In this document: positions 6,025-32,152 of the stretch, in pieces
Layout of the letters: the number at the start of each line of letters is the position of its first letter
Position numbering within the stretch: the stretch's first letter is position 1
Virus record (IMG/VR): IMGVR_UViG_2651869695_000011
Strand: one strand, 5' to 3'
DNA from: a virus
Lineage: Duplodnaviria; Heunggongvirae; Uroviricota; Caudoviricetes
DNA: 40,258 nt
The notes under the pieces: model-generated
Told to the model about the DNA's origin: nothing
The model's database searches: none
Seen by the model: the letters and a program-made list of their open reading frames with translations, nothing else
Made by a program: the position numbers and the translations under genes

Positions 6025-6090
6025 ATTACCTAAAAAACCACATATGGATAGATAACCCATAAATACGAACAGATATTACCTTTCAGGTAA
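6025..6090. promoter_or_regulatory. Bipartite upstream element of the tailspike operon: ATTACC-TAAAAAACCACATATG plus palindrome TTACCTTTCAGGTAA
   Basis: Perfect 6+3+6 palindrome at 6076-6090; AACCACATATG at 6036-6046; same arrangement recurs upstream of portal and early-gene operons. Confidence 0.45.
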
Positions 6091-6129
6091 TTCGCAAAAC
6101 GTGCTGGATAGCAAACAAATTATTTGCTA

Positions 6130-6145
6130 CTGTATAAATATACAG
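6130..6145 (+). promoter_or_regulatory. LexA (SOS) box
   Basis: CTGTATAAATATACAG matches CTGT-N8-ACAG with AT-rich core (consensus TACTGTATATATATACAGTA); 8 nt upstream of SD GGAG and ATG at 6167. Confidence 0.7.
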
Positions 6146-6166
6146 TTATTACATGGAGAAGATAAG

Positions 6167-6424
6167 ATGCAGCAGTATCACTATCCACTGGAAGACGGAT
6201 TTACCGAAAGGATTCACACGCCGGGAGGCGTCAGGTCACTGGTGGAGGGATCGCACTTGATGAAATTACTCCGGGATCTCGATAAGGATGGATTTAATGT
6301 CGATGGCCCACTTGCCGAACTGACTGCACTGATTAACTACGTCACCAGCTCACAGATGTCTATGCGGGATCTGCAAACACATCTCGACTATTGTGCCGAA
6401 CAATTACGAAAACAAACCAGATAA
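6167..6424 (+). CDS. Small antirepressor-like protein (stand-alone paralogue of the Bro-N protein C-terminal domain), LexA-controlled
   Basis: 85 aa; SD GGAG at 6154-6157; aligns with last ~70 aa of the 6740-7450 product (shared IH.P.GV..L.E.S.LM.LL..L..DG..V.G..AELT...Y......RD.QTH..Y). Upstream GTG 6101 extension rejected. Confidence 0.5.
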   Translation: MQQYHYPLEDGFTERIHTPGGVRSLVEGSHLMKLLRDLDKDGFNVDGPLAELTALINYVTSSQMSMRDLQTHLDYCAEQLRKQTR

Positions 6425-6560
6425 GATTTGAAATTACCAAGAGGAGTGCTTATATTTACCTTTGCGGTAAATTTACATCGCACTCCTCTTGTGCCATAGT
6501 AATCGGGCACTGGCAAAATCCAGTGCCGGGATTGGCGTCCCGAGTTACTAAGTGGCGCAT

Positions 6561-6583
6561 ACCACGCCAGACGTGGTTTTTTT
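6561..6583 (+). terminator. Rho-independent terminator
   Basis: ACCACG-CCAGA-CGTGGT hairpin followed by TTTTTTT. Confidence 0.55.
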
Positions 6584-6739
6584 ATGCGTTAAGCACAGCC
6601 ATATCCGAATTATGGTGGGCTGGGCAGGGGTCCGAAAGGACGCCGGTACCACTTAGGCCGGTACGCCAACCTTGTCCAGTTCACCACCAGTAATTGGCGT
6701 TGCGGTGGTGATTAAAATCACTAAGTGGAGATAACCACC

Positions 6740-7450
6740 ATGGCTAATGCTCAAACTGCCATCTTCAAATTTGAATCTGTTAACCCTATCCGTTCCATCA
6801 TTATCGATGGCCAACCATGGTTTGTAGCCCAAGACGTTTGTAGTGCGCTGCGTATCCAAAACGTCACCCAAGCACTTGAAAAACTGGATGATGATGAAAG
6901 GTCTATGTTCAACATAGGGCATGAACATCGTGCAATTTTTGACAGCCGAGTAAAAGAGATCAACATCATCTCCGAGTCAGGCCTCTACACACTGATCCTC
7001 CGCTGCCGCGATGCGGTGACACCAGGCACTATCCCCTACCGCTTTCGTAAATGGGTTACAGGTGAGGTTCTTCCTCAGATCCGCCGCACCGGAAGTTACA
7101 TTAAAAACTCGCTCCCGCAGGAAGAACGCATAAAGATGGTTGCCGACCAGGTAGCCAACGCCACAGCATCAGCAGTGATGCAGGCAATGAAGATAGAGAA
7201 CAAAACCTACAGTGCCCCACTGAAGCCCGGCTACCGCAGTCTGATTCATTCTCCGTCTGGTGTTCTCGGCCTGACGGAGAACTCACTGCTGATGAATTTG
7301 CTGAACCAGTTGCAGGAAGACGGGCACGATGTATCGGGCGCGGCGGCGGAGCTGACCACCATGTTTTGCTACATCGTTGGTGTGAGCAAATGCCTGCGTG
7401 ATATCCAGACTCACGCGGAGTACATCAACGACAAGGCTGGGTTCTTCTGA
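6740..7450 (+). CDS. Bro-N domain antirepressor-family protein
   Basis: Classical Bro-N signature (FKFESVNPIRSIIIDGQPWFVAQDVCSAL...LDDDE...ISESGLYTLIL...FRKWVTGEVLPQIRRTG); SD GGAG 9 nt upstream of ATG 6740; C-terminal domain paralogous to 6167-6424. Confidence 0.75.
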   Translation: MANAQTAIFKFESVNPIRSIIIDGQPWFVAQDVCSALRIQNVTQALEKLDDDERSMFNIGHEHRAIFDSRVKEINIISESGLYTLILRCRDAVTPGTIPYRFRKWVTGEVLPQIRRTGSYIKNSLPQEERIKMVADQVANATASAVMQAMKIENKTYSAPLKPGYRSLIHSPSGVLGLTENSLLMNLLNQLQEDGHDVSGAAAELTTMFCYIVGVSKCLRDIQTHAEYINDKAGFF

Positions 7451-7597
7451 CGGGCGGCGGCACAGGGATGTGCCTTTAAATAATTCTGTACAGATTGCAG
7501 ACTGTGGGTGAATAGCGTACTATTACCTCAAGGGTAAACGGATTGGTTTCATTTTTATTAATCCGTGTAATGAACTTATGAGATATGAGGTAATGTC

Positions 7598-7777
7598 ATG
7601 CGAAACGAAAAATTGCAGATGCGTAGAGCGCAAGCTGCCGCAAGACGTTCTTTCAATGGAAGCGTAGAGTACGTAAAAGTTACTATGACAAAAGATCACG
7701 CAAGTCGCGTATCCCGAGCTTTCTTTGATTCTCGTAACAATAAGGAAAATTATGAGTTCGTCTGCGTCGCAGAATGA
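7598..7777 (+). CDS. Small basic protein (59 aa), possible DNA-binding or antitoxin-like partner
   Basis: Not in ORF track (below size cutoff); good SD TGAGGTAA 6 nt upstream of ATG; Arg-rich N-terminus; 3' end overlaps start of next gene in a different frame. Confidence 0.3.
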   Translation: MRNEKLQMRRAQAAARRSFNGSVEYVKVTMTKDHASRVSRAFFDSRNNKENYEFVCVAE

Positions 7778-8297
7778 TAAAAATCAAATTGTCAGATATA
7801 AGGGTCGAGTATTGCATACGCAAAATTTCTCGGCCCTTTGTGCATCTGATCTTGAGCTGAAGAAAGTATCTGATGCCTTTACCCAGTATTGGAAAACGGG
7901 ATACCATCCATCTCTTGGTAAAGATGCTGCATTTGCTCGTCCGACAGAAATGCTTAAACTAAATGTCAGGCATACTCATGTCGATAACCAAGACTATATT
8001 CCAGAAGATAGTGATAAAAAACACACTGGTAAAAAATCATCTTGGGATGCATGGAAAAATATAGCGTCTGTGCAAGTAAAATGCATACCAACAAGTGATT
8101 GCTTTTTAGTTTATTCGGTAAATCACAATCGTGATGCGCTGGTTATGTTTTTTGTTGACGCAGATGCCCACAACATAACTGAGCAAGAAGAGTTTAAAGA
8201 GGAAGCAATCACTATCAGTTATCAATTCTTTGAGAAAACAAAAACAGAACCAATGCCTTTAGAAGAAGATCTTTTTTCTGATAAATGGAAGGAATAA
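7752..8297 (+). CDS. Hypothetical moron protein (181 aa), no family recognised
   Basis: SD AAGGA 7 nt upstream of ATG 7752; AT-rich codon usage unlike neighbouring virion genes; followed by a strong terminator. Confidence 0.5.
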   Translation: MSSSASQNDKNQIVRYKGRVLHTQNFSALCASDLELKKVSDAFTQYWKTGYHPSLGKDAAFARPTEMLKLNVRHTHVDNQDYIPEDSDKKHTGKKSSWDAWKNIASVQVKCIPTSDCFLVYSVNHNRDALVMFFVDADAHNITEQEEFKEEAITISYQFFEKTKTEPMPLEEDLFSDKWKE

Positions 8298-8319
8298 GCC
8301 CGCGTTGCGGGCTTTTTTG
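8296..8319 (+). terminator. Rho-independent terminator
   Basis: GCCCGC-GTT-GCGGGC then TTTTTTG immediately after the stop codon. Confidence 0.65.
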
Positions 8320-8356
8320 TGTCTGCGGATTCCCGCCCGGGCGGCGGTGGCATTCG

Positions 8357-8383
8357 TTAAAAACAAGGCCGCGAAAGCGGCCT
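8357..8383 (-). terminator. Rho-independent terminator of the virion operon (minus strand)
   Basis: On minus strand GGCCGC-TTTC-GCGGCC followed by TTGTTTTTAA. Confidence 0.55.
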
Positions 8384-8395
8384 GTGACATGTCAC
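8384..8395. repeat. 12-bp perfect palindrome GTGACATGTCAC (copy 1 of 3)
   Basis: Exact 12-mer between convergent terminators at the moron/virion boundary. Confidence 0.6.
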
Positions 8396-8396
8396 G

Positions 8397-8957
8397 CTAC
8401 ATTGATATATGATTCATAAAGTAGCTTAAAGATTTACTTCCCAGAAAAGAAATTTCTTTTCCTGGATATGTCGCAATAATTGAGCATGACTTATCCCCGT
8501 TAGAGGTAACAAATCCTGAATAACCTACTTGTTCTTTACCATTTTGTTGCTTGGCTAAAAAGTAGAGGTAGCTTATCTTTTTGCCCTCTGGGTAAAACTC
8601 TGCCAAACCAGTATCGGTGATTGAATATTTTATTCTCCCGCCTTGAGTAACGTTTTCCATCTCAAGTTTAGCTATGTCTTTTCTGTTGTATTCAGCATTG
8701 ATTTTCCTTTCGAAATCAATGTTGTTTTCAAATGAGTAGGAAGCAACAGTCTGAATAGATGGGAACACGTTTATCTGGATGCCTCCACAGTCGGCACAGG
8801 TATAAAGGTATGAATCAGATGGAATCCCCATAAAAGAAAACTGAGTTACCTTAAATTTATCGTTATCTCCAAAGTATTGAAGTTCGCATTTAACATTTTG
8901 CCCTGCAAAAGAAAATGCAGACATCAATATTGAAACAAAAAATATAATTGCCTTCAT
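8397..8957 (-). CDS. Secreted protein (cleavable signal peptide), function unknown; last gene of virion operon
   Basis: N-terminus MKAIIFFVSILMSAFSFA|GQ; start 2 nt after stop of upstream 850-aa virion gene; markedly AT-rich. Confidence 0.55.
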   Translation of the reverse strand: MKAIIFFVSILMSAFSFAGQNVKCELQYFGDNDKFKVTQFSFMGIPSDSYLYTCADCGGIQINVFPSIQTVASYSFENNIDFERKINAEYNRKDIAKLEMENVTQGGRIKYSITDTGLAEFYPEGKKISYLYFLAKQQNGKEQVGYSGFVTSNGDKSCSIIATYPGKEISFLGSKSLSYFMNHISM

Positions 8958-8959
8958 TA

Positions 8960-11512
8960 TTATTTACCTAGCATGAACTGCGATGGTGGGATCAGAAAGT
9001 CGTTACCCTGCTCACGCTCAACACGGCGCTGATAACGCTCAAGAGAGCCTGGGTCAAGGGCATCTTGTATCCGGTTCAATATTAAACCATTCATCGCCGT
9101 ACGAAGCCAGAACACGTTGAGGAATGGCGTATTGTCAAGTGCCGTGCGATACCAGTCACCCAAATCTGCATCCCCTCTCGTGGTCTGCTGGAGCAGCGTG
9201 ATAATGCTGTCAGCGTTCGATGCTGCTGGCCCCATTAGCGACGTAACCGGCCCGGCCCCCATGCGGTTGACCTCGCCAAACATGAAGTCACCCAAGATGC
9301 CAAGACCGCCCCCCTGAGATGCGGCTGCGAGAAACGTCTTGGCATCTGCCGGGCGTGGTGTTTGCCCTTTCAGCATGAGTTTTGACTGCATGGAGATATA
9401 ACCAAACATAGTCGCCCAGACAAAGAGGTTTGCAGCACCAAGGAAAGCCCCCTTCCCGTTACGTAGCAGCGCATTCGTCAGCGATCCGGTTTTCGACTCA
9501 CCAAGCCCAGCAGGAATATAACCACGCCCGAATACTTCGCGTCCTAGTACGTTCTGCATGAAGCTTGCAGTGAACGATTTGTACTGACCAGCGAATCGTA
9601 TTGCTTCCCCAGCCACCGTTCCTGGCACCGTGCCCATCTTCATAAACGCCTGCGTGCGATCGCCAGGCTCTGACATGGCGATATTCAGGCGGTCAAGGAT
9701 GTAGCCGCGCAACTGCCCTTCCAATTGATCGCGTGCGTCAGCGATAGCGCGCTGCGTTGGTTTGATCCCCTTACTCTCTACATAACCGGCAATCACTTCG
9801 TCAGGCACGCCGCGGATGCCGCTGGTCGTCATGAACTTACGACCTTCGCTATCGGCCATGTCCATGTTGCGAAAAATTTCCCACTCACGTTCGCCAATAC
9901 CGTGCAGATCCAGCACGCGTCGCAGGTCTTCCGGTAGCCGCGCATGAGACTGGTCAGCATTCTTTGCAAGCCAGTTGGTTATCATCATGGCGTTGCTGTT
10001 GCGACCGCTCTCGGTCCAGAAGTTCATGAGGTTGTACTTAAAGAAAAGCTGCTGCGCGCGACCAAGCTTTCCATTCAGCGTGTCATCACCAGATATGCGC
10101 CGGATGATTTCCTGCGTCATGGAGTCGGAATAAACTCCGATAGAGGAAAGGATCTCTTTCTGCTCCGCGCTGTTGTAACGCGTGAAGCGGCCTCTCATAG
10201 CACCAAGCAACGCCTGCATAAAATTCTGCCCTTGGTAGCGCATCTCGGTAGCGGCGATAGGCACGTCGTTAAACGATGAGATTACCGCACCACCAAGTTG
10301 GCTCATACGCAACCAGCCGCGTACAGCCGCCGACGCATTGGCCCAGCCTACGCTGCCAGGAATATTTAGCGAGCCGTCAACCTGCGGCATTACGGTACGG
10401 TTAATGCGACGCACCTTCGTCATGTAGTCAGCCAACGCTGCCGGTCTTCCGGATTTGCTGATATCTTCAGCAATGGCGTCCGTCAGGTACTTAAACATGT
10501 TCTGTGGGTTAGTGCCCAGTACGCGCATCATGCCCGTTGTGCGGGCAGCGCTGTTTAAGCCACCAAACAGCGCTTCTCGCAGGCTGCCGGTGCCGAATTG
10601 CTGGTTGTACTCGTGCCACGAGATACCATCTTTGAAGTGCAAAATTCGCTCTTGGCTGGCGCGTTTAGCTGCGTTCGCCGATCCCTTAAAGCCATTCATC
10701 CAATCGGGCTTTTCAGATGTAAGATGCACGCCGGAAGCCAGCCCGTTATAAATGTTACGCATGAACTGCTCGCGGTCAGCCACGCCGTCAAAAGTGCGCT
10801 CATCAAGGCGCGGGAGAATAGCATTTCGCCATGCTTCATAACCTGCGGCGCGGATCTTCATGATGTCGTGTGACTGGCGAACTATATAGCCCGGCTCTTT
10901 GCGTATCCATGCCCCGGCGCGGTTCTCATCAATGCGCGCAGTTTCCTGCCATTTCATGATGATTTGTGCAGCGCTTACGGATTGCTTTGTCATACCGTCA
11001 GTTGACTGCCCGCGCCCTATGCGCCACATTGCATCGGCAATTTCCCGGTCATTGCTGCCGCTGGCGATGAATTGCACCAGTCCGGCACGGTCAAAATCGT
11101 AGTTGATACCGGAATGATACTTGCCGCGCAGTTGCGCCACCTCCGAAGATACCGACCGGCGGGCGCCGGTACGCGCATCGTTGCGGCCAACCAGCATTGC
11201 TTCAAGCCCGATATCCGGGCGGTCTTTCCAGATAGTACGAAGCTCTCTAAGTCGTTGTGCGGCAATACGGGCGTTGATTGCCTTATTGCGAGCCTCAATC
11301 TGTTTTGCCAGCATATCGGCATTGCTCAGTTCTTCCGCTGCGCGCATCGCGGCCTCTTCCAGAGACAGCGCCTCATTGGTCGCCAGAATTCGCCTAGTGG
11401 TGTCGTTCATGTCACGCACCAGCGACTCCATCTCATCGGAAGAAAGCTCGCGACCAGCGGCAGCATTTACACTGCGCTCGCACTGCGTCAAAAATTCGTT
11501 TGCTGCCATCAC
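8960..11512 (-). CDS. Large internal virion (ejection/core) protein
   Basis: 850 aa, in block of large proteins between tail tube and tailspike as in T7 gp15/gp16 region; call by position and size. Confidence 0.5.
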   Translation of the reverse strand: MMAANEFLTQCERSVNAAAGRELSSDEMESLVRDMNDTTRRILATNEALSLEEAAMRAAEELSNADMLAKQIEARNKAINARIAAQRLRELRTIWKDRPDIGLEAMLVGRNDARTGARRSVSSEVAQLRGKYHSGINYDFDRAGLVQFIASGSNDREIADAMWRIGRGQSTDGMTKQSVSAAQIIMKWQETARIDENRAGAWIRKEPGYIVRQSHDIMKIRAAGYEAWRNAILPRLDERTFDGVADREQFMRNIYNGLASGVHLTSEKPDWMNGFKGSANAAKRASQERILHFKDGISWHEYNQQFGTGSLREALFGGLNSAARTTGMMRVLGTNPQNMFKYLTDAIAEDISKSGRPAALADYMTKVRRINRTVMPQVDGSLNIPGSVGWANASAAVRGWLRMSQLGGAVISSFNDVPIAATEMRYQGQNFMQALLGAMRGRFTRYNSAEQKEILSSIGVYSDSMTQEIIRRISGDDTLNGKLGRAQQLFFKYNLMNFWTESGRNSNAMMITNWLAKNADQSHARLPEDLRRVLDLHGIGEREWEIFRNMDMADSEGRKFMTTSGIRGVPDEVIAGYVESKGIKPTQRAIADARDQLEGQLRGYILDRLNIAMSEPGDRTQAFMKMGTVPGTVAGEAIRFAGQYKSFTASFMQNVLGREVFGRGYIPAGLGESKTGSLTNALLRNGKGAFLGAANLFVWATMFGYISMQSKLMLKGQTPRPADAKTFLAAASQGGGLGILGDFMFGEVNRMGAGPVTSLMGPAASNADSIITLLQQTTRGDADLGDWYRTALDNTPFLNVFWLRTAMNGLILNRIQDALDPGSLERYQRRVEREQGNDFLIPPSQFMLGK

Positions 11513-13206: not shown

Positions 13207-13207
13207 G

Positions 13208-19908: not shown

Positions 19909-20231
19909 TACTCCCCCCCATTGCCGTACAGAGTTTCAGCCGCTGATTTTCCTACATCACCGGAAACAGGAGCGATAGCCATATCAGTGATCTGCAGATC
20001 GGCGCTGCGATTAACACCATCGTCAGTTTCTCTGGCAGACAGGCCTCGAATAACAGCCTTTGCAGTTATCATCACTTCTGTTCCGACGCCCTGAGGTTGC
20101 GCCTTCAGCTTATTCAATGTGTCGTTATTCAGCGTGATGCACAGCCCCCACGGGTATTCATCGCGAGTTCTGGTTTCTCCGCTCTCATCCTGGTAGCTGT
20201 CAGTGCCTGTTTTGAGGTTTACGAGTTCCAT
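19908..20231 (-). CDS. Hypothetical virion-module protein
   Basis: SD AGGAG 5 nt upstream of ATG at 20229-20231; overlaps gp11-like start. Confidence 0.4.
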   Translation of the reverse strand: MELVNLKTGTDSYQDESGETRTRDEYPWGLCITLNNDTLNKLKAQPQGVGTEVMITAKAVIRGLSARETDDGVNRSADLQITDMAIAPVSGDVGKSAAETLYGNGGE

Positions 20232-22813: not shown

Positions 22814-22815
22814 GA

Positions 22816-23112
22816 TCACTCCTGTTCACTGGCCTCTTTGGCCATCTTCAAATACTGTTCAGGGCAATGCGCCATAACGCGCTGAAACAGCTCCAGCGCC
22901 AGATTGCGTTGCCCCTCATTAAATGCCATTGCCATAGCATCCATCGGAGAGATAGCGGAAAACACCCGGCCTTTCTCCAGCACAGACCAGACAACGCGAC
23001 GCCCCTGTTCACTGCTCATGACAAAGCGAATGTCATCAATTTCACGCTGTGCCATGTCACGTTGCTTACGGGCGTTTTCTTCTTTCAGTTGATCGTCTTC
23101 GTAATCTGTCAT
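22816..23112 (-). CDS. Hypothetical head-module protein
   Basis: 98 aa, overlapping stop/start with portal and scaffold genes. Confidence 0.45.
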   Translation of the reverse strand: MTDYEDDQLKEENARKQRDMAQREIDDIRFVMSSEQGRRVVWSVLEKGRVFSAISPMDAMAMAFNEGQRNLALELFQRVMAHCPEQYLKMAKEASEQE

Positions 23113-24788
23113 TGTGATTGCCCACCCTGACCACTAACTGCATTCGCCATAGCTGACAAAACACTCGGATCCGAAGTTTTAGCTTCGCTTAGCGTCTTGG
23201 CACCCTGTGCCGCCGCCATCCCCATCGCCATCATTTGTTGCTGCTGTTGTTGCTGTGCCCGTTGCTGGCGAGCCTGCTCAACCTGTTCCTGCGGAACAAT
23301 GACGGTTGGAGACACTCCAGACATATCAGCGAATGCATCGATCGCCTGATCAACGTTGAGTTTGTCGAGAGCTTCTGGTTTCGCTTGCGCAAGTTGACCA
23401 ATGAAGTTAACCGTGGACGCCAGACTGGACAGGCCGATAGACTTCTGCGCCTGAGCCATGACGGAAATGTATTCGACCTTCAGGGGCATGCCTTCCATCG
23501 CGTCAGGCGGTGGCGGCAACATGTTTTTACGCACCATCATCGAGAAAGCGCGGTCAATGAGAGGATTAAGACATTCGTCGTTCAGACGCTCCAGAACCGG
23601 CCCCAACATCAGAAGTTTTTCTTCTTTCATTTCGATCACCGCTTCAACAGGCATCGAGCGGGTATTGATGTTCTGCAACATCATGAACAGATCGACAAAG
23701 TAGGCGCTGTTAATGATTTGACGAGTGTCCTGAATGTCTGCCACCAAATCTGCTGTACTGGGGTTAACCAGATAAGCAGGCCTGAAGCCATCCTGACCAG
23801 TAATCTGATCGATATACGTGATGTCGCCAGGAAGAAGGGAGGCGCGCTGATTCTTGAGGGAAGTCGGAGCAACCATCGGAGGATTGGTGGCTTTATCAAT
23901 CAACTGCGACTTGCGCTTCTGGAGAAGCTGCAATGCCTTAACAGGTCCAAGCGCCAGCATACCCGGGCATGATGATCCATAAACATCTTCGCCGTTAACT
24001 TCCCAGCGCGGAGCCATAATTGGAAACTCATCGAATCCGGACTCACGCAACAACTTGTCGTTATCGCCACCAACCTCGTAATAAACCGATTTGAATGGCT
24101 TGTTCTTGCTATCCAGCTTCGATGTATCGCGGTCAATGTTCGGATAAACCGAATGCATCACTTCAATCCACTTCTCGTAGGTGCCGCTTTCCCACATGCT
24201 TTTTACGGATTCGCTGACGTTATTTAGTCCGAATTCCTGAACAAGCTGACGAACAGTCATAGAGAACTTGCGAAAACAGGTGTCCACACTGCCACGAGGT
24301 GAGTTAGCCAGGTAGTAACTTCCTATCGGGAATGGCATTGTACGAATGATGTCCTCGTCATCCTCCAGCACCGCCATTGCACCGGTGCTGTATGTGCCGA
24401 GGCTTCCGTATAACTGCGGCAGCGACTGATAGAGATTCGACTTATTGAACATATCGTTCATGCGGTTCTGCACTGCCTCAAGCCACAACTTAACAGGGCC
24501 ATAATCCATCATTTCAGGATCTGGCGTAGCCAGGCGAAACCACGGACGCACGGGGCTTGTGATGCCTGACATCATGCCGCTGGCGAGAGTGCGCGCCGCC
24601 ATAGTCCCAGTCGAATCAATAATGCGTGTATTGCGTCGATCGTTACGGTTGACCTCAGAAGTCAGAAAGCGGGAACCACGCGGGTTGATGTAATCACTCA
24701 ACTCGCGCCAGTGCGGCTCGAACGACTGACGCTCGCTTTCAAGTTGTGCGAACTGTTTGTTCAATCGCTCTTTAGTTGTTTCCGCCAT
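23109..24788 (-). CDS. Portal (head-to-tail connector) protein
   Basis: 559 aa; canonical position after terminase; Gln-rich C-terminal tail as in podovirus connectors; SD GGAG upstream. Confidence 0.8.
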   Translation of the reverse strand: MAETTKERLNKQFAQLESERQSFEPHWRELSDYINPRGSRFLTSEVNRNDRRNTRIIDSTGTMAARTLASGMMSGITSPVRPWFRLATPDPEMMDYGPVKLWLEAVQNRMNDMFNKSNLYQSLPQLYGSLGTYSTGAMAVLEDDEDIIRTMPFPIGSYYLANSPRGSVDTCFRKFSMTVRQLVQEFGLNNVSESVKSMWESGTYEKWIEVMHSVYPNIDRDTSKLDSKNKPFKSVYYEVGGDNDKLLRESGFDEFPIMAPRWEVNGEDVYGSSCPGMLALGPVKALQLLQKRKSQLIDKATNPPMVAPTSLKNQRASLLPGDITYIDQITGQDGFRPAYLVNPSTADLVADIQDTRQIINSAYFVDLFMMLQNINTRSMPVEAVIEMKEEKLLMLGPVLERLNDECLNPLIDRAFSMMVRKNMLPPPPDAMEGMPLKVEYISVMAQAQKSIGLSSLASTVNFIGQLAQAKPEALDKLNVDQAIDAFADMSGVSPTVIVPQEQVEQARQQRAQQQQQQQMMAMGMAAAQGAKTLSEAKTSDPSVLSAMANAVSGQGGQSQ

Positions 24789-24802
24789 TTCAATGACTCC
24801 GG

Positions 24803-25009
24803 TTACTGGCCAAGCAGCGTTTTACCGCTGGTATTAGCGGTTGATGTGTCGCCCTGAGAACCGGTAAGCAGCGTAGAACTACGACCAGCAGCAGCGCGAC
24901 GGCGACGAGTTTCTTCGTCGCGGGCATCAACAACGGCGGCATCCTGCTCCTGTGGTGCTGCCTGAACTTCTGGTGTTGCAGGCACTGACGGTGAGCTACC
25001 CATGCACAT
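24803..25009 (-). CDS. Small acidic protein preceding portal
   Basis: 68 aa; translation-initiation region GGAGTCATTGATATG nearly identical to portal TIR GGAGTCATTGAAATG. Confidence 0.4.
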   Translation of the reverse strand: MCMGSSPSVPATPEVQAAPQEQDAAVVDARDEETRRRRAAAGRSSTLLTGSQGDTSTANTSGKTLLGQ

Positions 25010-25033
25010 ATCAATGACTCCGTACGCAATTAA

Positions 25034-25113
25034 ATTATTACCAATTTAACCACATATGATTTATTTATCGTAGATAGTTGACATTTAACGCATGAATTAT
25101 TACCTTTAAGGTA
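25034..25113. promoter_or_regulatory. Bipartite upstream element of the head operon / tRNA promoter region: ATTACC-AATTTAACCACATATG, TTGACA, palindrome TTACCTTTAAGGTAA
   Basis: AACCACATATG at 25047-25057; TTGACA at 25077-25082; palindrome at 25099-25113. Confidence 0.45.
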
Positions 25114-25436
25114 AGCAAAGAGTTCATTCCGGTTACTAACCTGACTGGCTTGTCGTTAAATTGAACAGGTGGAGTGAGCTTTTATTTTGAGCAGTACGGC
25201 GTATGGCACATGCGCCGATAGCGGTCTGGATACGTTTAAGGGGCACCCTCCCTTGCTCGGGCAAACGAACCAGCTAGCCGGAATGTGCAAGTCGAGCGGT
25301 TTTATTCCGCGCACGGGGATTCACCATCCCGGCGATTCGGTGTGACGCCTCGGAAGAGACGAGGGTACAACGATGAGAGCATTTATGGAGCCGCGACAAA
25401 GTGTGGCGCCTTAACAGGCTAAGTGCTCTCAGCGTT

Positions 25437-25513
25437 GTGGCATTAGCTCAGTTGGACAGAGCAACCGCCTTCTAAGCGGTTGGTCGCAGGTTCGAATCCT
25501 GCATGCCGCGCCA
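25437..25513 (+). tRNA. tRNA-Arg (anticodon UCU)
   Basis: Cloverleaf by hand: acceptor GTGGCAT/ATGCCGC (one U-G pair), D-arm GCTC-AGTTGGACA-GAGC, anticodon arm ACCGC-CTTCTAA-GCGGT, T-arm GCAGG-TTCGAAT-CCTGC, discriminator G, encoded CCA; close to enterobacterial argU. Confidence 0.85.
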
Positions 25514-25556
25514 GAATCACGCCTAAGGACCGTGATGCCAGAAGTTCCAGGGGCTT

Positions 25557-25598
25557 GGCGGTGATGGTTTCCCTTGAAGGACTATCACCGCCCTTTTT
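25557..25598 (+). terminator. Rho-independent terminator after tRNA
   Basis: GGCGGTGAT...ATCACCGCC 9-bp stem followed by CTTTTT. Confidence 0.6.
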
Positions 25599-25676
25599 AC
25601 AGCAGGACGCCATTGCGATGACTTCATGCTGTAAACCCGTACAGCCACGGAAGGCATAACTCATTGCTTCCAGTTC

Positions 25677-25700
25677 GCCCGGTTCGCCGGGCATTTTTTT
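25677..25700 (+). terminator. Second hairpin/terminator immediately before the SD of the moron gene
   Basis: GCCCGG-TTCG-CCGGGC followed by ATTTTTTT, ending 1 nt before SD AAGGTGAG. Confidence 0.55.
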
Positions 25701-25711
25701 AAGGTGAGATT

Positions 25712-26068
25712 ATGAGCGACCAGCAAATCGAAAAAGAAATCGTTGAGAAAGGCAAAACCGCTCCGCGAGTTACGCCTCAATATATCGAAAGCATCATTCT
25801 TGAAGAGCATTTCTTTACTGCTTATGACGGCATTCGTGCTGCCAATATGGGCGTTGGCGATTCATGGACAGCGCATAAATCTACAGACCTCCTGACTTTC
25901 TGCGTATTGGTACTGAAGAATGGCTTCACCGTCACCGGAGAGAGTGCCTGTGCAAGTCCGGAAAACTTTGATGCGGAAATTGGTCGGAAGATTGCCCGGC
26001 AGAATGCTGTAAACAAAATCTGGATGCTCGAAGGTTACTTGCTGAAGCAGAAGTTAAGCGAGCAATAA
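25712..26068 (+). CDS. Hypothetical moron protein (118 aa) between tRNA and terminase
   Basis: SD AAGGTGAG 3 nt upstream of ATG; opposite strand to flanking late genes; bracketed by terminators. Confidence 0.55.
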   Translation: MSDQQIEKEIVEKGKTAPRVTPQYIESIILEEHFFTAYDGIRAANMGVGDSWTAHKSTDLLTFCVLVLKNGFTVTGESACASPENFDAEIGRKIARQNAVNKIWMLEGYLLKQKLSEQ

Positions 26069-26072
26069 CACC

Positions 26073-26084
26073 GTGACATGTCAC
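26073..26084. repeat. 12-bp perfect palindrome GTGACATGTCAC (copy 2 of 3)
   Basis: Exact 12-mer 5 nt after the moron gene stop, preceded by ATAACACC as in copy 3. Confidence 0.6.
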
Positions 26085-26088
26085 AAAC

Positions 26089-26116
26089 AGCCAGCCTATG
26101 AGCTGGCTTTGTTTTA
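26089..26116 (+). terminator. Rho-independent terminator of the moron gene
   Basis: AGCCAGC-CTATGA-GCTGGCT followed by TTGTTTT. Confidence 0.6.
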
Positions 26117-26158
26117 TCCTCACCAGAGGATATCAACGACATTATCCCCACCAGCGGA

Positions 26159-27634: not shown

Positions 27635-28224
27635 TGATTACCATCCTGACGTTCTTTGAGTCGCTTCCTGGCTGCCGCTATGCGATCAGCAATTGTCACA
27701 TTCACATTAACATCCAGGCGTTCTTTGAATGCGTTGACGTCGACGTGCTTACCAATCAGTTCGAGGTTCTTCACCTTGTCAGGCCATTTAATTTTTTTGA
27801 GGATTGTCTCTATCGAATCCTCGTTCATGTTCATGATGGTCGATGACAGATCAAAGCCACTAAGCGTAGTGCGCCAGATTTTCGGCCACTCACGGATTGG
27901 TTTAAGGCTCCCATCGTCGTTGAGGATATCGATCACGTCCATCTGGTCGATCTCCACTAGGCGCATGAGAACGTAATCAGCACTGACGCGCATTCGTTTG
28001 TTGCGCTCCTCCATCAACTCGGCAATCCGTTTTTGAATGCGTTCATCGCGCATCATGACACAGGCTTTAACTGCCGCTGTATTTGGGGAGAATCCTGCGT
28101 TAATCGCTGCCTGAGTCTGGTTTTCAGGCGTTTTGATGTATGACTGGCAATAAGCCTCCTGCATTGCTGTTAGTGGCTTAAATTGCGTTGATTTGCGTTT
28201 ATAGGTTTTAGGTTCAGCAGGCAT
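27631..28224 (-). CDS. Terminase small subunit
   Basis: Terminase-small-like segment LTAMQEAYCQSYIKTPENQTQAAINAGFSPNTA; start uncertain: ATG pair 28222-28227 after SD GGTGG preferred; ORF-track TTG at 28305 (overlapping upstream stop) possible. Confidence 0.65.
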   Translation of the reverse strand: MPAEPKTYKRKSTQFKPLTAMQEAYCQSYIKTPENQTQAAINAGFSPNTAAVKACVMMRDERIQKRIAELMEERNKRMRVSADYVLMRLVEIDQMDVIDILNDDGSLKPIREWPKIWRTTLSGFDLSSTIMNMNEDSIETILKKIKWPDKVKNLELIGKHVDVNAFKERLDVNVNVTIADRIAAARKRLKERQDGNQ

Positions 28225-28301
28225 CATAACCACCGTGGTAATAGTTACCGTTGTGGTAATAGTACCATGCAAAATAAAGCCGCCATAGTTGGCGGCAGTA
28301 T

Positions 28302-28514
28302 TCAAAGTCCATCAAATTCATCGTAAAAACTCTCGTCAAGATACCCTTCCCATTTACCGCGAATGAAAATTACATCCTCGCCGCAAGGGTGCTGACTGTC
28401 GATAACTATATCCCTCCTGGCGCAACCATACTTATGCATGAGAAATTTAACCTCTTTCGGAAAATTTGCTGAGTTATCTCTCATATCTTCAAGGTCGTAG
28501 CGTATTTTTGGCAT
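28302..28514 (-). CDS. Hypothetical small protein (70 aa)
   Basis: ATG 28512-28514 with SD GAAGGTG; the GTGACATGTCAC palindrome lies immediately upstream of this SD. Confidence 0.4.
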   Translation of the reverse strand: MPKIRYDLEDMRDNSANFPKEVKFLMHKYGCARRDIVIDSQHPCGEDVIFIRGKWEGYLDESFYDEFDGL

Positions 28515-28523
28515 AACACCTTC

Positions 28524-28535
28524 GTGACATGTCAC
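28524..28535. repeat. 12-bp perfect palindrome GTGACATGTCAC (copy 3 of 3)
   Basis: Exact 12-mer in short gap between two minus-strand genes; shares upstream ATAACACC and downstream GCCAGCCT with copy 2. Confidence 0.6.
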
Positions 28536-28870
28536 ACTATTAATTTCGTTTCATGCCAGCCTTTGGTCACCCAGCATTGCGAGTCACCATTACACGGGCA
28601 TGAATTCACAGGAACTCTCTCGCCGCACTTACCGCAACGTTTTCTGCTGATCGATTTTATACGCCCGCGCACGCGTGCATCATCCTGGCGGATCAGTAAC
28701 GCTATATACTCACCAAATTCGTAAGGCGCGCGCCCGGGGCGACGCGTGGCACAGTTACGCTCCAGCATTTCAATTTCCTGAGCATCAAGCACAATTTCCA
28801 GCTTACGCACACCGGATTCAGCTTGTCTGGCTCTCTGAGCGGCTTTGCGCTCTGCTGCTGATTTAGCCAT
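28532..28870 (-). CDS. Putative DNA-binding protein with C-terminal Cys-rich zinc-ribbon (possible late regulator)
   Basis: Basic N-terminus (KAAQRARQ...), C-terminal CGKCGERVPVNSCPCNGDSQC; last gene before terminase; SD AAGGTGA upstream of ATG 28868-28870. Confidence 0.4.
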   Translation of the reverse strand: MAKSAAERKAAQRARQAESGVRKLEIVLDAQEIEMLERNCATRRPGRAPYEFGEYIALLIRQDDARVRGRIKSISRKRCGKCGERVPVNSCPCNGDSQCWVTKGWHETKLIV

Positions 28871-29144
28871 CAATATTCACCTTTATCGCGAACACCTTTA
28901 CCGGTTTATCGCCGAAGTGGGGATGTGTGATTGTCTTGATTTCATATCCGTCATACGGAACATCAATTCTGCGGCTGGAATCGTCGCGCTTCGGATATCC
29001 CTTTGTGATAATCAGGCGGTCATACTTACGGTTAACGAGGCGCTTATTCCAGTAGTCATTACACAGGCGATACTCTTCCGTTTTCTCCCCGCGAATCATG
29101 GCATCGAAGTATTCACCTTTAACGGCAAGTTGCAGGTTAGCCAT
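28863..29144 (-). CDS. ASCH/DUF3850-like (PUA-fold) domain protein
   Basis: Motif YFDAMIRGEKTEEYRLCND resembling ASCH-like proteins (recalled, unverified); strong SD GGAGGTGAGG before ATG 29142-29144. Confidence 0.4.
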   Translation of the reverse strand: MANLQLAVKGEYFDAMIRGEKTEEYRLCNDYWNKRLVNRKYDRLIITKGYPKRDDSSRRIDVPYDGYEIKTITHPHFGDKPVKVFAIKVNIDG

Positions 29145-29404
29145 TACCTCACCTCCAGTCTCCATACAGCCTGACCAATCCGGCTGGCATGGGTATCTTT
29201 GGATACTGTTCCGTCTTTAGCCAGCTCCATAAGAATTTTGCGCAAATCTGCCGAACGCCATTCTTCATCAGGAAATTCCTTCTCCATTGCCAACCGCAGA
29301 TTCCAGGTTGCCATCCTGAATGGATATTTCCCGCCGAGAGCTTTATCTTGCAGGGCAGCCCGGGAACGCATCACCTGCAAAACCTTCTCTTTTACATCCA
29401 TCAT
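29144..29404 (-). CDS. Hypothetical early protein
   Basis: SD AGGAGG 4 nt upstream of ATG pair near 29399-29404; ORF-track start at 29461 lacks SD. Confidence 0.35.
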   Translation of the reverse strand: MMDVKEKVLQVMRSRAALQDKALGGKYPFRMATWNLRLAMEKEFPDEEWRSADLRKILMELAKDGTVSKDTHASRIGQAVWRLEVR

Positions 29405-29739
29405 TTCGCCTCCTGCGGCGGTTCTGGTAGCAGCATCCAGTACAAGGCGTTCCCTAACCACGATAAAGTGCCGTCGCTCAACTCCACGTATTCCTCTTGT
29501 ACCTGTCCTGCCATATACTCACCGTGCTTTGAATAAATTAAAATCCAATCATCTTGAGCGGGCATTCGCTCACTACAGCTTATCCAACCACCCGGACTTA
29601 CCGGAGAGTTGCCAGTCTTACGCATGGCAATCTCCACGATTTCAACCATATCTCCTGGCAGAATTTTACAAAGCTGGCCAAAGCGCCTCTGCTGCCTGGC
29701 ATACTCGAGGATGTGCTTCAGTTTGGTTCGATTAATCAT
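29401..29739 (-). CDS. DUF551-like early protein
   Basis: C-terminal WMLLPEPP-type ending and CSERMP motif recalled from DUF551 lambdoid proteins (unverified). Confidence 0.45.
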   Translation of the reverse strand: MINRTKLKHILEYARQQRRFGQLCKILPGDMVEIVEIAMRKTGNSPVSPGGWISCSERMPAQDDWILIYSKHGEYMAGQVQEEYVELSDGTLSWLGNALYWMLLPEPPQEAK

Positions 29740-30122
29740 GATTTATCTCCCTTAAGCATGGCTGCACGGCAGGCGTTCCAGCCTCTCACCTCTGCAATAG
29801 CTGCAACAGCATCAACTGTGTACATGCTAAGAGGGTTAGGCATTGGTTTTTCTTCCGGTACTACTGGAACGGGTGGAGCGGCGTAGACCTCAATAATTCC
29901 ATTATCAACAGGCCATTCTCCATCCTTGAGGTAGTCACTTGTGCCGTCAACTTGCTGTTCTGCAATGTGGAATGCACCTATTGGTTTTGCTTCCAGTGAT
30001 GCCAGCGCAATCCGTGCCAGCTCTTCCGCTTCTTCTGCTGGCAGTACAACGTTGCTACCAGGTCCGTATGTTTCGCGCCACTCCTTGATTGTCAGCAGTC
30101 GCTCTTTGGTAATAGTGATCAT
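29736..30122 (-). CDS. Hypothetical early protein
   Basis: 128 aa, ATGA overlap with upstream gene; no family recognised. Confidence 0.4.
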   Translation of the reverse strand: MITITKERLLTIKEWRETYGPGSNVVLPAEEAEELARIALASLEAKPIGAFHIAEQQVDGTSDYLKDGEWPVDNGIIEVYAAPPVPVVPEEKPMPNPLSMYTVDAVAAIAEVRGWNACRAAMLKGDKS

Positions 30123-30634
30123 GCCGCGTTTCCTTCTTTCTTATTAACAATTACACCGTCATATATTTCATTAAGGTGCCCTCTCAACTCCATGCGCCTT
30201 AATGCAGATAACATGTAATCGCATTCAACCTGCTTATTCCCAATAAAAGGTTTATCTTCAGGGTTACCCCAACAGCAATTCCCCTTGGGCCATCCATGTA
30301 CTTTCCGTACTCTTCCGTTAACAACGTGAAGTAATCCCCAGCCAGGAGGTAAATCCTCAATTGAAATAATTCCCGGCTCACTAATAAAGAATCGCCAGTC
30401 GCCCATGCCAAGTGAGGGATTTTTACGGAAACGCTTTTTTCTATCTGCCAACAAGTCAGCACGAGAACACTTCGCCTCTATCAGGCATGATGCTGAATTT
30501 CTGAATCCCATAGCATCTGGCTGTTCTCCGGTACTGGTTACAGCAACAAAGCGGTCATGAAAGCAAACCTTGAACCCGTTGCGCTTAAGGAACTTGTACG
30601 CAATCTGACAGAGTTCGTGGTGTGTTAACGCCAT
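30119..30634 (-). CDS. Putative PD-(D/E)xK-fold nuclease
   Basis: D...E.K arrangement (PDAMGF...CLIEAKCSRAD) in N-terminal half; strong SD AAGGAG 6 nt upstream of ATG 30632-30634. Confidence 0.4.
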   Translation of the reverse strand: MALTHHELCQIAYKFLKRNGFKVCFHDRFVAVTSTGEQPDAMGFRNSASCLIEAKCSRADLLADRKKRFRKNPSLGMGDWRFFISEPGIISIEDLPPGWGLLHVVNGRVRKVHGWPKGNCCWGNPEDKPFIGNKQVECDYMLSALRRMELRGHLNEIYDGVIVNKKEGNAA

Positions 30635-30635
30635 A

Positions 30636-31121
30636 TCACTCTCCTTTGATGCGAATGCCTGTTGCAATGCTGTTTATGATGCTGTCAGTGCATGGGGTAG
30701 AAAGCTGGGCATCTCCAGCAATTTTCATGACCTCAACATCTGCATATCGAATACCGAGGTGTATCAGACCGGCTATGCCTGACTTAAGCCGAGCATTTTC
30801 CATAAATAGAACTTTTGCCCGCTGTTTTTCTGCTTCAAGCTCAACGCGCAGCTTCCCTACCGTTAGCGCAATATCCTCGTTCTCCTGGTCACGGCGTTTG
30901 ATGTATTGCTGGTTTCTTTCCCGTTCATCCAGTAGTGCCAGCACGGTTTCTGGTCCGGCCAGAAATTTGAAGGCGTTGAGCGCATCAATATCCACACCGT
31001 AATCTTTAAGTTCCTGTTCACTTAACAAATCATCATCAGCTGGCAACATTAACAGGCGTTCCATTGCTGGAATTGCACGTTTCGCCGCCTCACGCAGTGC
31101 CTGATAGTCAATCTTGCTCAC
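30636..31121 (-). CDS. Coiled-coil early protein (Ead/Ea22-like by composition)
   Basis: 161 aa, helical/coiled-coil, in early accessory block; family recalled not verified. Confidence 0.35.
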   Translation of the reverse strand: MSKIDYQALREAAKRAIPAMERLLMLPADDDLLSEQELKDYGVDIDALNAFKFLAGPETVLALLDERERNQQYIKRRDQENEDIALTVGKLRVELEAEKQRAKVLFMENARLKSGIAGLIHLGIRYADVEVMKIAGDAQLSTPCTDSIINSIATGIRIKGE

Positions 31122-31666
31122 TGGTTGCCTCCTTTGCGAAGCTTCGCCGCAAAATCAGCCGCAACCTCTTTGACCATATTGGATAGCGGAGTGCCACCTC
31201 CGAATTTTTCTGAGAACATCTCCACACCCTGTGCCCTCACTTCAGCCAGGAAAGCATCGGTGGCTGGGGTGTCTGATTGCAGAGACTTTGCGCGATAGTC
31301 ATTCCACCCTCTTGCATACATGGGATTAACTTGCACTCCATCTTTTACGCAATATGCCTGCCCTCCACGGTTGATAACCTTGATTTCGTCCATAGCGCCA
31401 GACTTCAGCCCCGCATTCTCCGCCGCAAGCGCCGAAAACTTCTCGTGTGCCAACTTAACAGCCGCATCAGCCTGCTTAATTGACTCAATCGCTTTCTGGT
31501 GCTCTTCGGCCAGCTCATTAGCACGCACCAACTGAACTTCCAGTTGCGTTGCCAAATCGCTGATCAGCTTTGCCACACTGCGCATATCAACGGCACCACA
31601 TTCTGCTTTCAGTTCCGAAGCCATCTCATGCCCGGCAGCAACTAACCCTTTGATATTACGTTCCAT
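31118..31666 (-). CDS. Coiled-coil early protein (Ead/Ea22-like by composition)
   Basis: 182 aa, coiled-coil N-half; ATGA overlap with downstream gene. Confidence 0.35.
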   Translation of the reverse strand: MERNIKGLVAAGHEMASELKAECGAVDMRSVAKLISDLATQLEVQLVRANELAEEHQKAIESIKQADAAVKLAHEKFSALAAENAGLKSGAMDEIKVINRGGQAYCVKDGVQVNPMYARGWNDYRAKSLQSDTPATDAFLAEVRAQGVEMFSEKFGGGTPLSNMVKEVAADFAAKLRKGGNQ

Positions 31667-31727
31667 CTTTACCCTCGCTTATCCACATAACTTATTGATT
31701 ACATTGATAACTAAAAAGATCGTCGAT

Positions 31728-32072
31728 TCAGAACTCTTCGATGTTCCAGCCACCACCTGCTTTCTTTGGTTTAACCGTTACCCCGATGATTCGGAACGGA
31801 TACTGATCTGCGGCGACTTTGGTTTTCACCCTGGCGTCGTCGGTCCAGAAACCTTTCACTTCGTGCAGTTCCATCTCGCCGGTGGCGAGCATCACAGCAA
31901 AATCGGGCGTATAGAACGTGTTGTCAGCTAACCGCAGCTTGATACCCTCAAATCGATACCAGACGATTTCTCCTGCACGTTTACGCAGCTCAAGGTGCTG
32001 GCAATACGCAGATTCTGTTTTGTTCATCTGGCCTGTTTTGAGTCGACCAAGAGCCTGTATCTGTTTTCTCAT
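31728..32072 (-). CDS. Small PD-(D/E)xK-like protein (DUF1064-like)
   Basis: Motif YTPDFAV...ELHEVKG (D...E.K); SD GAGGTAA upstream of ATG 32070-32072 that is part of palindrome TTACCTCTGAGGTAA. Confidence 0.4.
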   Translation of the reverse strand: MRKQIQALGRLKTGQMNKTESAYCQHLELRKRAGEIVWYRFEGIKLRLADNTFYTPDFAVMLATGEMELHEVKGFWTDDARVKTKVAADQYPFRIIGVTVKPKKAGGGWNIEEF

Positions 32073-32075
32073 GAT

Positions 32076-32152
32076 TTACCTCTGAGGTAATTAAAAACCA
32101 CATAAGACACGAAATCAATAGATTTTAGAATATTTTATTACCCATAAGGTAA
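32076..32152. promoter_or_regulatory. Intergenic regulatory region with two TTACC-N5-GGTAA palindromes and AACCACATAAG
   Basis: TTACCTCTGAGGTAA 32076-32090, AACCACATAAG 32096-32106, TTACCCATAAGGTAA 32138-32152; only sizeable gap in the early minus-strand operon. Confidence 0.45.

Follow-up and report, generated by a model that had tools for sequence, protein, structure and literature searches.

Genes and dyads of the window

The window analysed here is the whole 40,258-nucleotide sequence of the virus record IMGVR_UViG_2651869695_000011, which carries a 14-bp imperfect inverted repeat (the dyad) upstream of several operons. Positions 5000-26000 share 96-98% identity (megablast) with Escherichia phages TL-2011b, phiV10, HEMP4, ZX5 and others, and 75-81% with epsilon15, Tyrion and PAT1; because of these matches to phiV10/epsilon15-type phages, the window is identified from its sequence as a phiV10/epsilon15-like (Uetakevirus) prophage, lying in the reverse orientation of the phiV10 record. 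The genes on which the following account leans are listed below, those for the tailspike, gp3/p06 and DUF1064 being named by homology with the phiV10 annotation.

3227-5971, minus strand: tailspike gene (start at 5971)
6168-6424, plus strand: homologue of ant, the SPC32H antirepressor
24803-25009, minus strand: small gene gp3/p06 (start at 25009), which lies ahead of the portal gene and opens the head operon
31728-32072, minus strand: DUF1064 gene (start at 32072)
34515-35099: Rep repressor, matching the solved SPC32H Rep (PDB 5D50) with E=4e-42

The operon opened by the DUF1064 gene ends with a gene of family phrog_536 (28532-28873; 'transcriptional regulator'), directly before the terminase genes.

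The original prediction had described a AACCACATA(T/A)G element at three minus-strand operon starts, and this repeated string is real, as AACCACATAWG occurs exactly at 6036, 25048 and 32096, each time on the plus strand. The longer strings ATTACCTAAAAAACCACATATG (6025-6046) and GGTAATTAAAAACCACATAAG (32086-32106) lie at the coordinates then given, while ATTACCAATTTAACCACATATG is found at 25037-25058, one base off the 25036-25057 reported for it. The three exact copies compare with about 0.04 expected in 80.5 kb, both strands counted (hand arithmetic). With up to one mismatch there are six matches against 1.2 expected, and the relaxed form AACCASATWNG gives seven against 0.28, two counts that none of 100 shuffles reached. 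The distances from string to gene start (65-75 nt for the tailspike, 39-49 nt for the head operon and 24-34 nt for DUF1064) agree with the earlier description, as does the presence of a TTACC-N5-GGTAA palindrome close to each string (6076-6090; 25100-25114; 32076-32090 and 32138-32152). The genes at these three starts match the phiV10 annotation, but at least three further copies had been overlooked (3149-3162, 6415-6428 and 34041-34054).

Aligned on the gene strand, where they read CATATGTGGTT, the strings make up the centre and the better-conserved of the two arms of a longer imperfect inverted repeat; the 11-base element is thus conserved, but the true conserved unit is 14 bp. Its consensus on the gene strand is A-W-Y-C-A-T-A-T-R-T-G-G-T-T (AWYC-ATATRT-GGTT), or AACC-N6-GGTT when both arms are exact, with an information content of about 15.5 bits over all sites read. 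Six copies are recognised in the window, the last three being those overlooked.

6036-6049, minus strand: S1, ATCCATATGTGGTT, upstream of the tailspike gene; contains AACCACATATG (6036-6046)
25048-25061, minus strand: S2, AATCATATGTGGTT, upstream of the gp3/portal head operon
32096-32109, minus strand: S3, TGTCTTATGTGGTT, ahead of the DUF1064 gene; weakest of the copies
3149-3162, minus strand: S4, AAACACATATGGTT, upstream of the lysis operon
34041-34054: tR1, with both arms exact (gene strand AACCAAATCTGGTT), lying between the intrinsic terminator that follows the cro-like gene (34108-34089) and the gp40/replication operon
6415-6428, plus strand: Pbro, AACCAGATAAGATT, at the 3' end of the ant homologue

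Conservation of the dyad

The dyad was read in seven relatives (phiV10, epsilon15, SPC32H, 66FD, Tyrion, BUCT554 and Kp4865-1), making eight genomes with the window. The five minus-strand dyads are kept at homologous positions in these seven wherever read, in genomes whose Rep is only 42-78% identical to that of the window. Across about 40 sites (hand tally), no change is seen at C4, G11, G12 or T14, in contrast to the flanks and to the two positions ahead of GG, which do vary.

Homologues of S1 read CATAT-NN-GGTT in epsilon15, Tyrion, 66FD, BUCT554 and Kp4865-1, NN being GT, AA, AC or AT. At S2 the gene-strand string given above is found in almost all genomes, with CGTATATGGTT in BUCT554, and the dyad there varies to ATGC.. 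in Tyrion and ATCCGTATATGGTT in BUCT554; it is unchanged in 12 of 14 aligned sequences, and its GGTT arm with the next 19 bases is exact in 80 of 89 loci. Relatives gathered via gp3 are 99-100% identical only and inform solely on micro-variation; the neighbouring half-site varies to GATAAT, GGTGAT and GGTAGT at loci L010, L058 and L069, with the dyad unvaried. S3 is represented by ACTCATTTGTGGTT in epsilon15 and 66FD, AACCGTATATGGAT in Tyrion, ACTCTAATGTGGAT in BUCT554 and ATCCGTTTATGGTT in Kp4865-1, the pattern being C(A/T)T(A/T)TGTGG(T/A)T, or TATATGGAT in Tyrion. S4 has both arms exact in phiV10 and Tyrion (AACCATATATGGTT) and reads ATCCATATATGGTT in 66FD, TTCCATATGTGGTT in epsilon15 and ATCCACATATGGTT in BUCT554. 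The tR1 arms AACC and GGTT are conserved around a variable centre in all seven relatives, and the Pbro homologues AACCAGATAAGGTT (phiV10) and AACCACATAAGGTT (Tyrion) are both followed by N4-ATTACC.

A weight matrix trained only on sites of epsilon15, Tyrion, BUCT554, 66FD and Kp4865-1, with none from the window/phiV10 lineage, returned S1, S4, S2 and tR1 as the top four loci of the whole phiV10 genome (19.2-21.8 bits), the maximum in 30 Markov-chain simulations of the window sequence being 18.0 bits. Its scores in the window are 21.8 (S1), 20.0 (S2), 15.3 (S4), 14.4 (tR1) and 12.7 bits (Pbro), with S3 below 10.5. When a second matrix was trained without the epsilon15 lineage, the top five loci of epsilon15 were tR1, S2, S4, S1 and then S3 (14.1 bits), and the top four of SPC32H were S4, tR1, S2 and S1. 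The dyad is apparently absent as an annotation from the epsilon15, phiV10, Tyrion and SPC32H records.

Several other dyad-like matches occur in the window. ATCCAGATATGGTT at 3310-3323, inside the 3' end of the tailspike coding sequence, scores 18.0 bits, equal to the simulation maximum, and could be a seventh dyad or a chance match. AACCAGATACG at 35200-35210 lies in the spacer of the PL-like TTGACA-17-AATTAT and is kept in phiV10; as it is absent from epsilon15 and SPC32H, it is regarded as lineage-specific or fortuitous rather than as a dyad copy. AACCAGATAAG is found at 23766-23776, inside the portal gene. An apparent excess of TACC-N8-GGTT was discarded as unconserved matches in coding sequence.

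Relation to the repressor palindrome

The ATTACC-N5-GGTAAT palindrome that accompanies the dyads is an already known feature, the dyad being the new element. Kropinski's 2007 genome paper on epsilon15 reportedly proposed ATTACCWDWWNGGTAAT as the gp38 operator. The epsilon15 record (GenBank AY150271) labels homologous palindromes 'protein_bind: repressor' before gp3, the tailspike gene and gp43, and in the immunity region. The window holds eight exact and seven one-mismatch copies of TTACC-N5-GGTAA against 0.67 expected, and TACC-Nx-GGTA is enriched at x=5 only (10 copies in the window and 13 in epsilon15 against 0.1-0.2 expected), with no copy at x=6. The repressor-type sites nearest to the dyads, with one promoter-like sequence that encloses such a site, are the following.

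6076-6090: full palindrome TTACCTTTCAGGTAA, upstream of S1; epsilon15 homologue annotated as a repressor site
6030-6025, minus strand: GGTAAT half-operator, the last T of which opens the -10-like TAGAAT (6025-6020)
25100-25114: full palindrome TTACCTTTAAGGTAA, upstream of S2; epsilon15 homologue annotated as a repressor site
25042-25037, minus strand: GGTAAT half-operator, then the -10-like TAATTT (25037-25032)
32076-32090: full palindrome TTACCTCTGAGGTAA, 4 bp from S3 (GGTT-TTTA-ATTACC), overlapping the DUF1064 ribosome-binding region
32132-32159, minus strand: promoter-like TCGATA-16-TAAAAT, upstream of S3
32138-32152: palindrome in the spacer of this TCGATA-16-TAAAAT
34060-34074: palindrome TTACCTTTGAGGTAC, 4 bp from tR1 (GGTAAT-AAAA-AACC, gene strand)
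6433-6438: ATTACC, 4 bp from the Pbro dyad
6456-6470: full palindrome, overlapping the Pbro -10/+1

Five of the six dyads stand 4-5 bp from a Rep half-site. S1 and S2 carry GGTT-N5-GGTAAT, and S3, tR1 and Pbro carry GGTT-N4-ATTACC, whose ATTACC forms the outer arm of a complete or partial palindrome; both spacings recur in each of the lineages read there. S4 is the sole dyad with a distant palindrome (about 45 bp), of which the window keeps just a TTACC half-site. The similarity 'ATTACC ... AACCACATATG' pointed out in the original prediction is this composite of the dyad and a Rep half-site.

Both elements are AT-rich inverted repeats with an ACC...GGT core, found in the same genomes and intergenic regions. 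However, the Rep operator has TTACC/GGTAA arms around a variable 5-bp centre, whereas the dyad has arms (A/T)(A/T)(C/T)C and GG(T/A)T, AACC/GGTT at their best, around a 6-bp centre with conserved ATAT. The Rep operator is present in 10-15 copies per genome, PR and PL included, whereas conserved dyads are absent at PR and PL. Neither TTACC/GGTAA arms nor N5 spacing occurs in any dyad copy of the eight genomes read, in which the two never interconvert. By arms and spacing, the dyad is a class distinct from the Rep operator and not a sloppy copy of it.

Some further features of the palindrome-bearing regions were recorded. Between a terminator and terS, the palindromes TAACCACCGTGGTAA and TTACCGTTGTGGTAA lie 18 bp apart (28227-28259), the first using a TAACC arm, and a comparable pair, 17-18 bp apart, is found in the PR/PRM region (34427-34459). 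Between the S2 palindrome and dyad, TGTCAA at 25079-25084 (TTGACA on the plus strand) is invariant and the block CTACG.TAAATAA at 25062-25078 is conserved, both in 14 of 14 sequences; no -10 was found at 16-18 bp from this TGTCAA/TTGACA on either strand. The repeat TGAATCA-N5-TGATTCA before rep was rejected as an element, being unconserved in epsilon15 and Kp4865-1.

Promoter context of the dyads

Hexamer pairs 16-18 bp apart are found at all six dyads; these hexamers are consensus matches, and scans give no more promoter-like matches than shuffled sequence does. At S1 the -35-like TCCATA (6048-6043) lies inside the dyad and is followed by the -10-like TAGAAT. The relatives carry TTCATA-17-TAGAAT here, found by consensus scan in epsilon15, and their -10 variants (TAGAAT, TACAAT and TAAACT) keep A2 and T6, as for a true -10. 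S2 has the same layout (ATCATA-17-TAATTT). The S3 dyad is contained in the 18-bp spacer between the -35-like TTGATT (32118-32113) and the -10-like TTAATT (32094-32089), an arrangement that reads TTGAWW-18-TAAATT across lineages and TTGAAA-18-TAAATT in epsilon15. The promoter-like sequence upstream of S3 has a GGTAA|TAAAAT junction conserved in five lineages and is preceded by the stem GCGCGATAGCGC and T7 (by eye), which matches a terminator annotated in phiV10. At S4 (TTAAAA-18-TATGAT) the -10 TATGAT (3141-3136), which is TATGAT or TATAAT among relatives, begins 7 nt after the dyad, without a conserved -35. At tR1 the two final bases of the dyad open the -35-like TTGATC (34042-34037), with the -10-like CAAAAT at 34019-34014 (TTGATC-16/17-CAAAAT), which centres the dyad at about -41.5. 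The geometry of Pbro is almost the same, the last dyad base being the first base of TTGAAA-17-TATATT (6428-6456).

The view that no convincing sigma70 -35 is present is unsupported, as the tailspike site of relatives reads TTCATA-17-TAGAAT; the lysis dyad is followed by TATGAT/TATAAT. With such sigma70-like hexamers at the sites, the element would lie within host-type promoters rather than substitute for them. The distance from GGTT to the -10 is 1 nt at S3, 7 at S4, 10 at S1 and S2, 21 at tR1 (20 in some relatives) and 22 at Pbro. The proposal of a phage-specific promoter or activator module holds insofar as a conserved, non-random cis element lies at operon starts, is coupled to the palindrome and behaves like a regulatory module for protein binding within putative promoter regions, but a single fixed-geometry activator is unsupported, since the dyad shifts by more than 20 bp relative to the -10 between sites and the variable gap is a poor fit to any one such protein. 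The dyads do not keep the constant site-to-(-10) distance of class II sites (-41.5), lambda CII, P1 Lpa or the T4 MotA box. The ZX5 paper predicts four promoters and describes no operator or late-promoter motif.

A proposed second operator-like site and its possible reader

The dyad is most likely a second operator-like class of site in epsilon15/phiV10-type phages, beside the Rep palindrome, as suggested by its sequence and placement. Each delayed-early, middle and late transcription unit would have one copy within or abutting its sigma70-type core promoter, the six units predicted here being gp40/replication, Bro/antirepressor, DUF1064 to the regulator, head, tailspike and lysis. From the motif, its extent, copies, conservation and placement, we infer that the dyad is occupied by a dimeric DNA-binding protein, encoded most likely by the phage, which, with or against the neighbouring Rep or Cro, would decide the access of host RNA polymerase to these promoters. 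The sign of its effect could differ with position. The two dyads with both arms exact, centred at about -41.5/-42.5, would be placed like class-II activator sites, while at the imperfect dyads over the -35 or spacer, binding would either substitute for the -35 contact or occlude the promoter. The leading explanation, put forward tentatively from these sequence features, is that the dyad may be the operator of a separate regulator acting with Rep. The remaining phage-encoded candidates for such a regulator are gp40 (33779-33979, the zinc-finger protein of the original prediction), which lies directly downstream of the tR1 dyad and is 54% identical between lineages, together with two proteins of the leftward operon, one PerC-like (37871-38170) and one AlpA-like. 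Neither gp39, at the cro position, nor gp40 has sequence relatives in PDB.

Several points weigh against a separate regulator. Exact-arm AACC-N6-GGTT is present in one copy per genome and is not enriched by itself, so that the case for the dyad rests on conservation and the weight matrix; in the first matrix, the window copies of S4 and tR1 score inside the simulation range, and S3 scores below 10.5 bits. The register of dyad to -10 differs between sites, which disfavours one simple activation geometry. No binding protein could be singled out, and no transcription-start or binding data for Uetakevirus promoters were found in the reachable literature. The ACC/GGT core and the constant adjacency of a Rep half-site would equally fit binding by a Rep tetramer.

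Rep itself as the dyad binder is the main rival, a serious if somewhat unlikely alternative, in which the dyad would be an auxiliary lower-affinity site of Rep (or of Cro, gp39). One DNA-binding pair would occupy the palindrome or half-site and the other the dyad over the core promoter, whereby delayed-early and late promoters would be silenced in the lysogen. SPC32H Rep, of which the window Rep is a clear homologue, is described as a tetramer when on DNA, its DNA-binding pairs being formed across dimers (PMC9638917). With two pairs of N-terminal DNA-binding domains in such a tetramer, every Rep-controlled region would then hold at least two sites per tetramer. This would account for the 4-5 bp distance to a half-site at five of the six dyads in all lineages, and for tR1 and S4, where the palindrome lies outside the core promoter and the dyad alone overlaps it. 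The shared core, the TAACC half-site in the double operator before terS (28227-28241) and the occurrence of the dyad with the Rep/gp39 cassette among the genomes scanned, being absent from Citrobacter phage Omnitron, which lacks the cassette, are consistent with it as well. However, the two motif classes stay discrete although Rep has diverged to 42% identity, whereas weak forms of one operator should drift rather than keep a 15-bit consensus of their own, and the related immunity cassette of phage pOW20-A holds, between CI and cro, only TACC-N5-GGTA sites.

This cassette, from the marine Psychrobacter phage pOW20-A (locus L090, 3143-3209), has three TACC-N5-GGTA operators and no dyad; its CI is 38% identical to Rep in the N-terminal domain, and its Cro, which sits opposite this CI, is 48% identical to gp39 over an aligned 40-residue N-terminal stretch. 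The N5 operator code is therefore shared far outside Enterobacteriaceae. Because the gp39-type protein of pOW20-A adjoins such operators, gp39 of the window, 79% identical between lineages, is probably a true Cro reading the N5 palindrome. As a dyad binder this positional Cro analogue was set aside, the N5 palindrome being its likelier target.

A wider arrangement, rather doubtful as a whole, would be a two-code operator system for Uetakevirus gene expression, with the N5 palindrome as one code and the N6 dyad, at a set distance of 4-5 bp from N5 half-sites, as the other. Such composites may be read by one Rep tetramer with two binding modes, or by Rep and a partner regulator, and the protein may act as an activator at delayed-early promoters, from about -41.5, and occlude late promoters, giving timing without antitermination. 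A third palindrome, GTGAC-N2-GTCAC, lies at three minus-strand operon 3' ends and may be served by the phrog_536 protein.

A conserved DNA-binding protein of the enterobacterial host, tying delayed-early and late phage transcription to host physiology, is a quite unlikely reader of the dyad. Phages of Escherichia, Salmonella, Enterobacter and Klebsiella share an identical motif, and no phage regulator could be linked to it; but the dyad does not fit the host consensus sites with which it was compared, those of DnaA (TTATNCACA), integration host factor (IHF; WATCAANNNNTTR), CRP, LexA, NtrC and the RcsAB box, and the strictly kept distance of 4-5 bp from phage half-sites speaks for a partner specific to the phage. 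For IHF in particular, AATCATATGTGGT fails three of the nine specified positions of its consensus, and the sites annotated in epsilon15 at 2918-2940 (gp3) and 19910-19932 (tailspike) miss the dyads at 2985-2998 and 19937-19950.

Shared sigma70 promoter sequence from duplicated promoter cassettes, with no separate factor, is an improbable source of the similarity. The invariant GG and C lie in the spacer or ahead of the -35, places at which sigma70 contacts no specific bases; the register to the -10 differs between sites, and at tR1, Pbro and S4 the arms are kept while the centre varies, the signature of a dimer site. In favour of this reading, TTCATA within the dyad can serve as a -35, and the GGTAA|TAnnnT arrangement recurs in Rep-controlled promoters such as PR.

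The late regulator at 28532-28870 suggested in the original prediction, i.e., the product of the phrog_536 gene (28532-28873) with its cysteine-rich C-terminal tail, is disfavoured, and a late activator of this kind acting at the dyad appears very improbable. Its gene ends the middle operon just before terS, which is the position of late regulators in other phages, and PHROGs labels the family 'transcriptional regulator'. Omnitron, however, has a 77%-identical homologue and no dyads: CATATNNGGTT gives nine matches against 6.7 expected, none exact, and AWYC-N6-GGTT gives two against 4.7. That phage also lacks Rep, gp39 and N5 palindromes, and its structural module is unrelated. The family goes with the GTGAC-N2-GTCAC palindrome instead, and the variable dyad-to-(-10) distance fits one activator poorly. 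The protein has no sequence match in Pfam, NCBIfam or PDB.

The dyad is hardly credible as an RNA element of 5' leaders (nut-like or a processing hairpin) or as a DnaA box, for although several dyads could be transcribed from upstream palindrome-containing promoter-like sequences and TTAACCACA at S2 matches eight of nine positions of TTATCCACA, the minimum free energy z-scores (-0.43, -2.22 at S2, -0.72, +0.45 and -0.94) give no common fold, the S2 value of -2.2 reflects an AT hairpin peculiar to that site, the promoter-like hexamers adjoining the tR1 and Pbro dyads lie downstream of these dyads, and no compensatory changes keeping a hairpin across lineages were seen. The likeness to a DnaA box noted earlier was dismissed, as S2 matches its consensus at eight of nine positions but S1 and S3 at six, and the CCACA core at S1 becomes CCTTA in epsilon15, 66FD and BUCT554 and CCGTA in Tyrion. 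The AT hairpin of S2 corresponds to the inverted repeat GTTAAATT-GGTAAT-AATTTAAT at 25029-25054, centred on the S2 half-operator; as RNA it would form a 15-bp hairpin (z=-2.2), which is S2-specific and conserved without covariation.

Comparison with known phage systems

The sites of lambda CII and P22 C1 are TTGC-N6-TTGC repeats straddling the -35 of PRE, PI and PaQ. The dyads resemble them in having tetranucleotide arms 6 bp apart that flank a poor -35, and S1 and S2 (centre about -29.5) approach this geometry. However, the CII repeats are direct, have a fixed geometry and drive lysogeny-establishment transcripts, whereas the dyads are inverted and lie at lytic operons; no CII-like protein was found in the window.

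In phage P1, late promoters activated by Lpa consist of a -10 and a conserved inverted repeat near -22, and C1 operators are scattered over the genome. The window likewise combines scattered repressor operators with a second inverted repeat inside late promoters, between -35 and -10, the closest dyad being S4 (centre about -26.5, good TATAAT, no conserved -35). The sequence is another one, though, the dyad-to-(-10) distance is variable, delayed-early promoters have dyads too (at about -41.5), and no Lpa homologue was detected.

At lambda OR2, CI activates PRM from about -42 and represses PR. Some promoters similarly have the dyad at about -41.5 and others have it over their core, and such dual placement would let one protein activate one set and repress another. 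Unlike that of OR2, the dual function of the dyad is a purely positional inference.

Epsilon15, phiV10 and SPC32H are in use for structural models, for reporter phages and as a model of the repressor/antirepressor switch, and no description of the timing of their delayed-early and late genes was found in the literature. The delimited 14-bp site provides a handle on this question, indicating where to mutate, which fragments to use in pull-downs and which promoters share a regulon. It also refines the operator picture, in that the Rep half-sites beside dyads are parts of composite sites and not degenerate leftovers, and a possible use lies in reporter phages engineered with controlled late expression.

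Neighbouring features

The ant homologue is preceded by a perfect LexA-type box (CTGTATAAATATACAG, 6130-6145) inside the spacer of TTGCTA-17-TATTAC, and this box is kept in epsilon15, Tyrion, 66FD and BUCT554. The 5' leader of the tailspike gene (5985-6010 and homologues) contains a GC-rich hairpin, e.g., GCGCGCCGGGCGC in epsilon15, whose sequence differs between lineages while the stem is seemingly retained (by eye). A tRNA-Arg(tct) gene lies at 25437-25513 on the plus strand, opposite to the structural genes, and overlaps the open reading frame 25443-25694 (phiV10 hypothetical protein p04), which may therefore be spurious.

The perfect palindrome GTGACATGTCAC (GTGAC-N2-GTCAC) has exactly three copies in the window (8384-8395, 26073-26084 and 28524-28535), all at minus-strand operon 3' ends; the first comes behind the last structural gene, the second behind terL, and the third lies on the phrog_536 stop codon. 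Predicted terminators adjoin the first copy (8383-8366, minus strand) and lie 4 nt from the second (26089-26108, plus strand), the one nearest to the third being about 230 nt downstream (28296-28279). Two or three copies are found at homologous places in all eight Uetakevirus relatives checked. Its position at the stop codon of the phrog_536 gene is common to the window, epsilon15 and Omnitron, and the palindrome may be the target of the phrog_536 regulator itself, perhaps linked to termination or read-through. Omnitron has a single copy, after its regulator homologue and a terminator, and in N15 GTGACTGGTCAC follows gp46, the member of the phrog_536 family in that phage.

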